Part shown: in pieces, positions 25,546-53,836 of the stretch
How positions within the stretch are numbered: the first letter of the stretch is position 1
How the letters are laid out: each line of letters opens with the position of its first letter
Program-made: the position numbers and the translations under genes
Source of the DNA: Escherichia coli
Lineage (GTDB): Bacteria > Pseudomonadota > Gammaproteobacteria > Enterobacterales > Enterobacteriaceae
DNA length: 64,000 nucleotides
Direction: 5' to 3' (one strand)
Assembly: GCF_013122565.1 (NCBI RefSeq)
Contig: NZ_CP053258.1
Notes under the pieces: model-generated
The model's database searches: none
What the model saw: only the letters and a program-made list of their open reading frames with translations
What the model was told of the DNA's origin: nothing

Positions 25546-27213
25546 TTATTGCAAACGTTCTAATAAACGAGCCAGTTTTTTATTGCCGCCGGCGACTGGC
25601 GACCATTGGTAATGCACAACCGGTTTGCTGGCGCTTTGTAGCTCCAGCGCAAAACTGCGTAATCCGATGTTAATCACGGCGACGTTTTCCAGTAATGACG
25701 GTGTGTGTTGCTGTGCGGCAGGCGAGAGCGGATGAATTAACGCTGCCGCCAGCAAGGTGGCTTCCGGTAGCGAACTCACGACCGCAATCCCCGCATCTTC
25801 CAGCGTGGCGATTTGCTGCGAGCGGCATTGCGGGTCACGTTCGGTACCTGTCACCGTGGCAATGGCGTACAGCGGTTGGCTGTCTGAACGCGCGGCACAG
25901 GCTTTTTGCCAGGCGCTCACCAGCGAGGCGGCAGGATCGGCGGTCGCACCGAAGCCAATCACGACATCAAGCAGCAGCACACGCACTTGCGGTTTAGCGC
26001 CGAGATCGGCAATTAACTGGTTGCGTAAGGTTGGGTCGATCATCGGATGGGGACGCCCGACTGTGTAGAAATCATCGCCGAGGTCAATAATCTGGTGACC
26101 ATCGGCGTCGAGCATCATGCCGTGATGATGGGCATCATCGGCTTCCACGCCAAGGTGTCCGGCAAGTAATCCCGCCGCTTCGGCAGCCAGCGTACCGCCG
26201 GTATACAAACCGCAAATAAATCCGCTGCTGGCAGGCGTTATCGCGTTACGTCGCGCCGTAACGCGTGAAAGCAGGCAAGCCAGGCGTGCGGCCTCATCCA
26301 GCGAGGAGGCAAACCAGACATTCTCGTCGCGGGCCACCGCCGGGGTATAACCTAAAAACAGCGCCACCGTCGGTTTGCCGGTTGCTTTCATGGCATTAAC
26401 AATTTTCAGACGCACAGCTTCGGCAGGTGGTTTTGAAACAAATGCCAGCACTTCGCTTTTCTCGTCTGCACTGAGCATTTCCAGCGCTGTTAGCGCACTG
26501 ATGCCGCCCACTTCACGGCTGAGGTCGCGGCCGCCAAGGCCAATCGCGTGAGTAATTCCCTCCCCTGCCAGCGCAATCTGCGAGCACAGCTCCTGAATCC
26601 CAGTACCGGAAGCGCCAATGACGCCAATGTTGCCTTCCGGCATCACGTTAGCAAAAGCCAGCGGCGTGCCGGCAATCATCGACGTACCGCAGTCCGGCCC
26701 CATCACCAGCAAGCCTTTTTCCCGCGCGCGGGTTTTAAGTTGGATTTCATCTTCCAGCGTGACGTTATCGGAGAACATCATCACGTTGAGGTTGCGATCC
26801 AGCGCCTGCTTCGCCAGCTCCGCCGCATACTCGCCAGCCACTGAAATCAGCGCCAGACTGGCGTCGGGTAATTTCTGACAGGCACTGTCCCAGCGACGCA
26901 CCTGCGTCAACGCCTGGCTGCTGCCTGACCCCTGCGCCAGTTGTTTTAGCGCCTCTTCAAGCTGCTGCATAATCGCCTGCGCGATCCCCGCATCCGCCGC
27001 TTCGCTACGAATTGCCACGCAAATATCGTTCGGCGTGGCGTTATTAAAATCGTCATGCCAGAAACCTGTGGTATCTAATAACGCTTTATTGGCGGGCGTA
27101 CCCATCATTACGGAAACATCATCAACATTTTCTGATTCGCTGAGTTTTCGTGAAATAATCATTAAACTGACCGAATCCTGAAAACACCCTTTTTTAATAA
27201 AGGCGTGGATCAT
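25546..27213 (-). CDS. fdrA: Acyl-CoA synthetase-like (CoA-binding/ligase-CoA domain) protein FdrA (555 aa)
   Basis: Succinyl-CoA-synthetase-alpha-like architecture; first gene of the operon. Confidence 0.88.
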   Translation of the reverse strand: MIHAFIKKGCFQDSVSLMIISRKLSESENVDDVSVMMGTPANKALLDTTGFWHDDFNNATPNDICVAIRSEAADAGIAQAIMQQLEEALKQLAQGSGSSQALTQVRRWDSACQKLPDASLALISVAGEYAAELAKQALDRNLNVMMFSDNVTLEDEIQLKTRAREKGLLVMGPDCGTSMIAGTPLAFANVMPEGNIGVIGASGTGIQELCSQIALAGEGITHAIGLGGRDLSREVGGISALTALEMLSADEKSEVLAFVSKPPAEAVRLKIVNAMKATGKPTVALFLGYTPAVARDENVWFASSLDEAARLACLLSRVTARRNAITPASSGFICGLYTGGTLAAEAAGLLAGHLGVEADDAHHHGMMLDADGHQIIDLGDDFYTVGRPHPMIDPTLRNQLIADLGAKPQVRVLLLDVVIGFGATADPAASLVSAWQKACAARSDSQPLYAIATVTGTERDPQCRSQQIATLEDAGIAVVSSLPEATLLAAALIHPLSPAAQQHTPSLLENVAVINIGLRSFALELQSASKPVVHYQWSPVAGGNKKLARLLERLQ

Positions 27214-27528
27214 AACAACTCCTTAAAAATTGCACCCATGGCAATTGCACGAGCAGTGTTAATGTGGCGATTACGGTATCGATGACAACGGGTAAATAAG
27301 GTGATGAATATCACACAGGGATTATTAACAAAAGAATTCAAATAACCGTCAGGCTATTACGCGTTATTTTTTAATAAGCATGGTTGTTTTAAAAACAGGT
27401 TAAAAGCGCGAAGATTATCAAATAAATTCTAACTATATTTTTTTGCCTGTCTGGATCACATAATCCAGATATTTTCCCTGTATGTTAATTGCAGTCATGC
27501 TTCACACCGTCGTTAAAAAGGAAGACAG

Positions 27529-28578
27529 ATGAAAATCAGTCGGGAAACACTCCACCAGCTAATCGAGAATAAACTCTGCCAGGCTGGGTTAAAACGTGAG
27601 CACGCTGCAACCGTGGCTGAAGTATTGGTTTACGCCGATGCCAGAGGGATCCACTCTCATGGCGCGGTGCGCGTTGAATACTACGCAGAACGCATTTCAA
27701 AAGGCGGCACCAACCGCGAACCGGAATTTCGTCTTGAAGAAACCGGGCCGTGTTCGGCAATTTTACATGCCGACAATGCCGCCGGACAGGTCGCGGCGAA
27801 AATGGGTATGGAACATGCCATCAAAACCGCCCAGCAAAATGGCGTTGCGGTGGTCGGTATCAGCCGGATGGGTCACAGCGGCGCAATCTCTTATTTTGTG
27901 CAGCAGGCCGCCCGCGCCGGATTAATTGGCATTTCGATGTGTCAGTCCGATCCGATGGTGGTGCCGTTTGGCGGCGCGGAAATTTACTACGGTACTAACC
28001 CACTGGCCTTTGCCGCGCCGGGAGAAGGCAACGAGATCCTTACCTTTGATATGGCGACTACCGTACAGGCATGGGGAAAAGTGCTCGATGCCCGCTCGCG
28101 TAATATGTCTATCCCGGATACCTGGGCGGTCGATAAAAACGGTGCACCAACAACCGATCCGTTCGCGGTACATGCTCTGCTCCCCGCCGCCGGGCCGAAA
28201 GGGTATGGCCTGATGATGATGATTGACGTCCTCTCAGGCGTCTTACTCGGCTTACCGTTCGGGCGACAGGTTAGTTCGATGTATGACGATTTACACGCAG
28301 GGCGTAATTTGGGGCAATTACATATAGTTATTAATCCGAACTTTTTCTCCTCCAGCGAATTATTCCGTCAACATCTTAGCCAGACCATGCGCGAATTAAA
28401 TGCCATTACCCCCGCGCCCGGTTTTAATCAGGTTTATTATCCCGGACAGGATCAGGATATTAAACAACGCAAAGCCGCCGTCGAAGGCATCGAAATTGTT
28501 GATGATATTTACCAGTATTTAATTTCCGACGCGCTTTATAACACGTCATACGAAACGAAAAATCCCTTTGCGCAATAA
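27529..28578 (+). CDS. allD: Ureidoglycolate dehydrogenase AllD (349 aa)
   Basis: Ldh_2-family sequence; first gene of allDC-allE. Confidence 0.93.
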   Translation: MKISRETLHQLIENKLCQAGLKREHAATVAEVLVYADARGIHSHGAVRVEYYAERISKGGTNREPEFRLEETGPCSAILHADNAAGQVAAKMGMEHAIKTAQQNGVAVVGISRMGHSGAISYFVQQAARAGLIGISMCQSDPMVVPFGGAEIYYGTNPLAFAAPGEGNEILTFDMATTVQAWGKVLDARSRNMSIPDTWAVDKNGAPTTDPFAVHALLPAAGPKGYGLMMMIDVLSGVLLGLPFGRQVSSMYDDLHAGRNLGQLHIVINPNFFSSSELFRQHLSQTMRELNAITPAPGFNQVYYPGQDQDIKQRKAAVEGIEIVDDIYQYLISDALYNTSYETKNPFAQ

Positions 28579-30708: not shown

Positions 30709-30840
30709 GCCTGATGCGCTTCGCTTATCAGGCCTACATGATCTCTGCAATATATAGAATTTACGCGATTTTCAGGAAGGATATGGTACTCATGCCGCAT
30801 CCGGCATGAGTACTGCACTCTTATGCGATATAAATCGCAT
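30709..30840. repeat. REP unit plus two further perfect palindromes between convergent allE and glxK
   Basis: REP gcctgatgcgcttcgcttatcaggcctaca; 12-bp-arm palindrome gtactcatgccgCATCcggcatgagtac (30786-30813); 6-bp-arm palindrome atgcgaTATAAAtcgcat (30823-30840). Confidence 0.75.
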
Positions 30841-30858
30841 CCGCTTTAAAGGTAAGGG

Positions 30859-39999: not shown

Positions 40000-40016
40000 T
40001 TGGAAAAATTTTCCAA
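40000..40016. promoter_or_regulatory. Candidate AllR operator in the gcl promoter
   Basis: Perfect palindrome TTGGAAAAATTTTCCAA about 20 nt upstream of gcl start. Confidence 0.7.
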
Positions 40017-41549: not shown

Positions 41550-41566
41550 TTGGAATATTTTTCCAA
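41550..41566. promoter_or_regulatory. Candidate AllR operator in the allS-allA divergent region
   Basis: Palindrome TTGGAATATTTTTCCAA with the same half-sites as the gcl-promoter site. Confidence 0.7.
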
Positions 41567-53470: not shown

Positions 53471-53836
53471 TTAAATTTTCCTGCCTGGCGTAAACCTCTT
53501 AAAAATTGAGATTTATCAAAGAAACGCATTTTAGCACACATCAGGAACCGCTTCACGTTTAGTCCAGAAACAGAATTTATTTCGCTTATCAAAACAAGTC
53601 TTTACTCTTTTTTACATTGAAAGAGCACGAAATGATTTCCTTTTTTATTTATAAAAGAAACACTTTTTGTTTCTTATTGGTGGTGTTTACGCTTACACCA
53701 AACAAAAATGCGCTTTACATCACACAAATGGCGGCGTAGATTTCGATCAAATTGCAACGTAGTTTATTTCTTAAAACAATATTATTAGTTTCTTATAGAA
53801 ACATTAATGCGACTTATTTTGATCGAGAGAAAATGA

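Follow-up and report, generated by a model that had tools for sequence, protein, structure and literature searches.

The perfect palindrome between the divergent genes fdrA and allD of Escherichia coli lies within the core promoter of allD and is hence regulatory DNA, though its symmetry is ordinary. On balance, its left arm and first spacer bases (ctgGATCACAta) are best regarded as part of a deeply conserved, asymmetric promoter-proximal element of allD, and its right arm as Escherichia-specific spacer that is fortuitously complementary, with class II activation of the CRP type as the favoured mode of action. The dyad as a whole is very probably not the functional unit; the palindrome as such is probably a coincidence confined to Escherichia, because only its left half is conserved and that half resembles a one-sided activator site. 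A preliminary description had proposed the palindrome as a candidate operator, a proposal that survives for the region as cis-regulatory DNA of allD, with its highly conserved core GATCACA, but not for the palindrome as a unit of function. The main value of the analysis is therefore a correction: the palindrome should not be annotated as an operator of AllS or AllR.

The window, a 64,000-nucleotide stretch of E. coli DNA, contains the allantoin (all) cluster in reversed orientation relative to K-12, with gene assignments consistent with the K-12 annotation. Ureidoglycolate dehydrogenase is encoded by allD (27529-28578, + strand, ATG at 27529), the first gene of allDCE, with allC and allE on the same strand, and fdrA/allF (25546-27213, - strand) heads the divergent allFGHK operon. 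The 315-bp intergenic region between them (27214-27528) has a GC content of 35.6% vs 52% for the window, and the palindrome ends 61 nt before the allD ATG, so that its earlier placement in an AT-rich divergent region, about 60 nt upstream of allD, is borne out. Among 5,426 complete E. coli genomes, 5,338 contain a match to the intergenic region, with identities of 90-99%. Mapping of the all promoters is reported in two studies, Rintoul et al. 2002, reportedly the source of the allD start, and Cusa et al. 1999.

The inverted repeat ctggatCACATAatccag is present to the letter at 27451-27468; the 6-nt spacer first ascribed to it is correct, but the symmetry continues for one further base on each side, giving 7-bp rather than 6-bp arms (TCTGGAT-CACATA-ATCCAGA, 27450-27469). 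Such symmetry is no more than chance would yield: counting arms of ≥7 bp and spacers of 0-12 nt, 107 perfect inverted repeats occur in the 64-kb window, 14 of them with a spacer of exactly 6, and in 5000 first-order Markov simulations of the 315-bp intergenic region at least one such 7-bp-arm repeat occurred in 32%, rising to 75% for 6-bp arms. The likeness to the T-N11-A sites of LysR-type regulators that had been attributed to the palindrome is not found either, the dyad being even in length and centred between 27459 and 27460, with symmetric positions that read T-N14-A or G-N12-C.

Conservation of the two arms is sharply unequal. A scan for AllD with one genome per species yielded 80 loci, approximately 40 of which carry GATCACA upstream of allD; these comprise Enterobacterales and one Photobacterium, span six families, and have a divergent fdrA wherever the flank was available. 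GATCACA (27454-27460, + strand), formed by the left arm and the first spacer bases and reading TGTGATC, a CRP-type half-site, on the bottom strand, holds the sole GATC of the intergenic region proper and is among its most conserved non-coding elements. Exact copies precede the allD ATG by 71-87 nt in Escherichia, Citrobacter, Klebsiella, Raoultella, Buttiauxella, Atlantibacter, Serratia, Budvicia, Rahnella, Providencia, Erwinia and Pantoea, and are found farther upstream in Pragia, Proteus and Photobacterium. The right arm (ATCCAGA, 27463-27469), which falls in the spacer between this half-site and the predicted -10 hexamer, is kept in Escherichia only: the cross-genus consensus of its columns is ATTAATT, with column identities of 30-80%, and individual genera read ATCAATT or TTAGATT (Citrobacter) and TTAAGTT (Klebsiella). 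In the upstream alignment, E. coli has all 7/7 arm pairs complementary; an outer A to T change breaks the outer pair in E. whittamii (6/7), three pairs are broken in Citrobacter werkmanii (4/7), and other genera have 1-4/7, against a random expectation of approximately 1.75 of 7. No compensatory arm changes or covariation were found across the approximately 40 aligned allD/fdrA loci. Conservation across the Enterobacteriaceae, which had been put forward as a check, thus extends to the left-arm core and not to the dyad or the right arm; selection appears to act on an asymmetric element rather than on the dyad, because GATCACA is invariant, the right arm is confined to Escherichia and changes go uncompensated.

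Within E. coli, positions 27436-27500 are identical in 4,849 of 5,318 genomes, with the sampled variants differing in the T-run upstream of the palindrome; this near-invariance says little about constraint because divergence is so low, and remains compatible with a lineage-specific function. In E. coli GCEC19 (NZ_CP137765.1, 3697222-3697445), an IS1 element is inserted in the left arm of the palindrome, with its junction directly 5' of CACATAATCCAG, which strips allD of the upstream context of GATCACA and of all upstream activator sites.

A second conserved element lies at a fixed distance from the first. Among 41 loci, all anchored on GATCACA, 39 carry TAnnnT exactly 20 nt downstream of it, with hexamer positions 1, 2, 5 and 6 conserved at 80-99%: TATGTT in E. 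coli (27481-27486, + strand); TATTTT in Klebsiella and Rahnella; TACATT in Serratia, Erwinia, Pantoea, Providencia and Proteus; TATTGT in Budvicia aquatica; TATGGT in Pragia and Budvicia diplopodorum; and TACTAT in Photobacterium. TATGTT is likely to be the -10 hexamer of allD, an assignment made from its sequence and position. A conserved GCAG follows 5-8 nt past the hexamer, and from the two together the transcription start is predicted at its A/G (27493-27494, + strand), with a 5' UTR of approximately 35 nt. No -35 hexamer is present 16-18 bp from TATGTT, and a consensus scan returned zero + strand sigma-70 promoters with a -35; a missing -35 is typical of activator-dependent promoters. With the start predicted at 27493/4, TCACA falls at approximately -38 to -33 and the palindrome centre at approximately -34, and the spacer that separates the upstream element from the -10 therefore contains the right arm. 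On the - strand, promoter-like matches overlapping the palindrome number 2, vs 1.8 expected by chance, and on the allF side no Cappable-seq start sites (+ strand, U00096.2 coordinates) were found at 545,5xx-545,9xx. An ATA-N9-TAT sequence (ATATTTTCCCTGTAT) at 27469-27483, Nac-like or T-N11-A-like, overlaps the predicted -10; it is probably fortuitous, because its left ATA is found in E. coli only (TTA or TTT elsewhere).

A different -10 is available inside the palindrome itself, where CATAAT (27459-27464) matches TATAAT at 5/6 positions; were this the allD -10, transcription would start near 27471 and the palindrome would merely overlap the hexamer. The CAnnnT pattern at these columns is kept in all Enterobacteriaceae and in Serratia, Erwinia and Providencia, and the shifted start would place the annotated AllS site at -78 and the conserved block at 27413-27435 (Box 2, below) at -47, the classical LysR arrangement of recognition (RBS) and activation (ABS) sites; -78 is a typical position for a LysR-type regulator such as AllS. 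However, the conservation of CATAAT is not independent, because its CA belongs to the invariant GATCACA, and Proteus (CAGCAG) and Photobacterium (CAAAAC) have lost the hexamer but retain TAnnnT at +21 to +26. It would also leave the strong conservation of the downstream TTTATTTTCCCnGTATGTTA without explanation, and CATAAT is accordingly an unlikely -10 for allD.

For the predicted promoter built on TATGTT, the best candidate binder of GATCACA suggested by its sequence is CRP, an identification that is plausible but tentative. The consensus around GATCACA, TCTRGATCACAWTW, follows the CRP consensus TCTAGATCACATTT, and a hypothetical 16-bp core, GCCTG-TCTGGA-TCACA (27445-27460), has a perfect proximal half and in E. 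coli a degenerate distal one. Sites were scored with a symmetrised position weight matrix (PWM) derived from 39 in-vitro sites of a Footprint-seq preprint (PMC12871828), the allD/fdrA entry being left out. The proximal half-site with its flanks (frame 27443-27462) scores 12.2 in E. coli and 12.5-13.6 in most genera, of a maximum of 13.59, values that are partly preset since anchoring on GATCACA fixes 7/10 scored half-site positions. The distal half GCCTG of E. coli is at background (-11), and the full site scores 1.38, ranking 244 of approximately 64,000 window positions; stand-alone binding of CRP in E. coli would be weak, because 9.8 is the lowest score among the high-affinity training sites. 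In the same frame, full-site scores reach 7-15 in Klebsiella, Atlantibacter, Rahnella, Providencia, Budvicia and Erwinia; those of Raoultella (9.1), a Citrobacter (9.5), Serratia DD3 (10.9), Erwinia (11.5), Budvicia (11.7), Providencia (13.1), Atlantibacter (14.3) and Rahnella (15.0) lie within the range of bona fide, high-affinity CRP sites.

The centre of the hypothetical CRP site, 27452.5, is at -40.5/-41.5 from the predicted start, a class II position, although this placement is only as good as the predicted -10 from which the start is derived. One textbook class II CRP promoter, galP1, has one consensus and one degenerate half-site. According to PMC12871828, the weakest CRP sites lean mainly on one half-site, and sites with one poor half, such as atTCCGCtggagaTCACAttt and aaTGTGAtccagaTCGTTatc, can have a Kd of ≤10 nM. 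The allD promoter resembles class II CRP promoters with one degenerate half in its TGTGATC half with an A/T-rich flank, its centre at approximately -41 from the predicted start, its degenerate second half and the lack of a recognisable -35; it differs from them in that its strong half is the promoter-proximal one, its weak half is at background in E. coli (PWM -11) and its use of CRP is a prediction.

CRP already acts at this locus, in the sense that a full site on the allF side is bound in vitro. This site, TGTGA-TATTCA-TCACC (27300-27315, - strand; TGTGAtattcaTCACC, minus strand TGTGATATTCATCACC), is the best CRP match in the 64-kb window (PWM 18.86), and its GTGA-N6-TCAC is kept in all Enterobacteriaceae loci. 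It is reported as a novel in-vitro CRP site (K-12 546586, Kd 9.8 nM) in the 2026 preprint (PMC12871828). That it is the one CRP site given for allD/fdrA in the strong-site table of that preprint, which surveyed 1,217 regions in all, counts against a CRP site at GATCACA. The matrix is thereby validated, because an experimentally bound site held out of its training scores highest in the window. The same site lies in the ArcA EMSA fragment -142/-83 (approximately 27296-27355) of Kim & Kim 2025, and is passed over in the available text of that study (PMC12535856). The next-best CRP matches in the window are 53707-53726 (AATGCGCTTTACATCACACA, 15.95) and 30822-30841 (TATGCGATATAAATCGCATC, 14.1), the latter being palindromic and situated where allE and glxK converge.

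The likeliest mechanism for this arrangement, with no -35, the -10-like TATGTT at 27481-27486 and GATCACA fixed 20 bp upstream, can be proposed as follows. An activator on GATCACA, centred at approximately -41, would stand in for the absent -35 contact; if that activator is CRP, it would bind mainly through its one consensus half-site (TGTGATC with an A/T-rich flank), and in E. coli this one-sided site would probably be reliant on cooperation with RNA polymerase and AllS. AllS bound upstream, at its annotated site near 27393 and probably also at Box 2 (27413-27435), would give pathway-specific activation.

Direct binding of AllS to the palindrome, the operator assignment first suggested, does not agree with the positions published for this regulator. 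In Kim & Kim 2025 (PMC12535856), a PRODORIC AllS motif is placed at -181 from the allF ATG, and an AllS-containing lysate shifts a 60-bp fragment covering -203/-144 in EMSA. Allowing for a one-base indel relative to K-12, these map in the window to approximately 27393 and 27357-27416, so that the shifted fragment stops 34 bp short of the palindrome. The palindrome shares with the AllS sites of PMC12535856 the intergenic region and the AllS-dependent operon, and is at a position to which an activation site could extend; in contrast to them, the published motif and fragment lying 34-60 bp upstream, it is not of the T-N11-A form and its dyad is unconserved. Its centre, at approximately -34 from the predicted start (-11 for a start at 27471), is outside the range of LysR recognition sites, approximately -65 to -80, and the dyad that would be expected to persist in orthologous promoters as a LysR-type operator is complete (7/7) in E. 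coli alone. The gene for AllS is outside the 7-kb loci in all cases except for a partial match in one.

Two upstream boxes are better placed. Box 1 (TGTTTTAAAAACA, 27385-27397) forms the centre of the annotated PRODORIC AllS motif, inside the EMSA-positive fragment at approximately 27357-27416 (PMC12535856). The stretch that contains this motif, 27376-27412, is where the intergenic region varies most, even when E. coli strains are compared: an A-run indel and several substitutions distinguish the window, K-12, E69 and E8, and the stretch is unalignable in Klebsiella. Box 2 (GATTATCAAATAAATTCTAACTA, 27413-27435, + strand) is a 23-bp LysR-type-like block that is invariant in the compared E. coli strains and near-invariant across Enterobacteriaceae, forms a clean dyad in Erwinia (TTCAAAgaaaaTTTGAA) and resembles TsttwTCAAwAwwwTTGaaGGCA, the motif of the AllS paralogue AdnB/YdhB. 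It fits a LysR recognition position at approximately -70 from the predicted start, and lies just outside the AllS EMSA fragment published in PMC12535856. Because this box is conserved while the region of the annotated motif is variable, Box 2 may be the real AllS site for allD, or a second one. A full-text search found no paper with the palindrome or Box 2 sequences. A further conserved block, GATTATTAACAAAAGAATTCAAATAAC (27320-27346), begins with the same GATTAT as the box at 27415-27433, matches it at 14/19 positions in direct orientation, and overlaps the predicted ArcA motifs at -117 and -134 from allF.

Such a layout allows AllS to be considered for GATCACA in another way, which is the main alternative to CRP: as the promoter-proximal activation site (ABS) of an AllS tetramer anchored on Box 2 and reaching to approximately -35. 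LysR-type tetramers often protect from approximately -80 to -30, as is known for the family (reviewed in PMC11495319), GATCACA is preceded at a distance of 33 bp by Box 2, with its likeness to the AdnB motif, and AllS is absolutely required for allD (Rintoul 2002, as cited in PMC12535856). The proposal is weakened because GATCACA is unlike the half-sites of the upstream boxes, and because the boxes drift by genus (TATCAAA..TCTAAC, TTCAAA..TTTGAA, TTTAAC..TATAAC), a pattern that suits a co-evolving local regulator, whereas the invariance of GATCACA suits a global factor; moreover, the sole AllS-shifted fragment in that study ends at approximately 27416. An AllS activation site at GATCACA is thus doubtful. 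Less probable still is a role for GATCACA-N20-TAnnTT, which does not vary from Photobacterium to E. coli, in docking a factor other than CRP or AllS that restricts allD expression to anaerobiosis, with the site elaborated in Escherichia into a true dyad operator.

Recognition of the full palindrome by a dimeric regulator specific to Escherichia, such as a repressor that keeps allD off in air, with the right arm recently evolved beside the older element, has in its favour the perfect 7/7 arms, the near-invariance among 5318 E. coli genomes, and a centre at approximately -34, from which a dimer on the DNA would block RNA polymerase; the strictly anaerobic expression of allD is still without an assigned regulator in the available text of PMC12535856. 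However, perfect repeats of this kind occur at chance level, E. whittamii already lacks the outer pair and C. werkmanii three pairs, and E. coli genomes diverge too little for their invariance to signal constraint. Candidate dimers fare no better. AllR, an IclR-family regulator proposed as a possible binder, has operators in the same regulon with TGGA...TCCA arms superficially like those of the palindrome, but the palindrome, TGGA-N8-TCCA, is one base wider than their N7 and differs in its inner bases. The AllR consensus TTGGAAWAWTWTTCCAA (PMC8222616) was searched for in the window at a tolerance of 3 mismatches, and the only matches are the two true operators, 40000-40016 in the gcl promoter and 41550-41566 between allS and allA, both of them perfect. 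In the available text of PMC12535856, no AllR motif is predicted in the allF/allD region and an allR deletion is without direct effect. The same study gives PRODORIC predictions of OxyR and SoxS motifs at -224 and -237 from the allF ATG, which map to approximately 27437 and 27450, on or beside the palindrome; deletion of oxyR or soxS slightly raised allF'-'lacZ, an effect judged indirect by the authors (PMC12535856). Judged by these mutants, SoxS and OxyR did not act as direct regulators of allF'-'lacZ, and the idea that the palindrome coordinates the two operons finds no support in them. An Escherichia-specific dyad operator is on this evidence quite improbable.

An RNA hairpin, acting as an attenuator or terminator in the allD leader or as a structure in a long allF 5' UTR, is extremely unlikely: a terminator-like scan flags 27448-27471, followed by TTTTCCC, and a 61-nt RNA fold reaches -14.8 kcal/mol (z-score -2.9), but just 3 of the 9 pairs are G-C, 4 U are present, right-arm changes are uncompensated and so give no covariation, Rfam returned no match, and the predicted allD start is downstream of the hairpin.

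Several other motifs were considered at this position and rejected. An FNR site does not fit, the half-site being of the GTGAT rather than the TTGAT type and the left half absent; a sigma-54 promoter would have the wrong GG/GC spacing and an unconserved GG; ArcA direct repeats lack the 11-bp repeat partner; and IHF, Fur and Nac motifs are a poor fit or unconserved, the Nac-like ATA-N9-TAT being found in E. coli only. The long spacing of ATCACA-N20-TATGTT recalls a MerR-type spacer operator, but the dyad centre lies at approximately -34, which coincides with the -35-like position, not at -24, and the dyad is unconserved.

For the favoured explanation, a one-sided element under CRP-type class II activation, the result is a testable picture of the allD promoter, with no -35, a conserved -10 (TATGTT), a CRP-type half-site at approximately -41 and a LysR-like box at approximately -70, all at predicted positions. 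Together with the allF-side site bound in vitro, this picture points to a possible carbon/energy input from CRP into each of the two divergent operons of the oxamate branch, one that would add to the inputs of AllS and ArcA.

At the other end of the intergenic region, directly upstream of the fdrA Shine-Dalgarno sequence, AATTGCACCCATGGCAATTGCAC (27228-27250) contains the direct repeat AATTGCAC twice at 15-bp spacing and the inverted repeat AATTGC/GCAATT, with AATTGCACCCATTGCAATTG kept in Citrobacter, Klebsiella and Superficieibacter; this element may serve as a leader structure or as a binding site.
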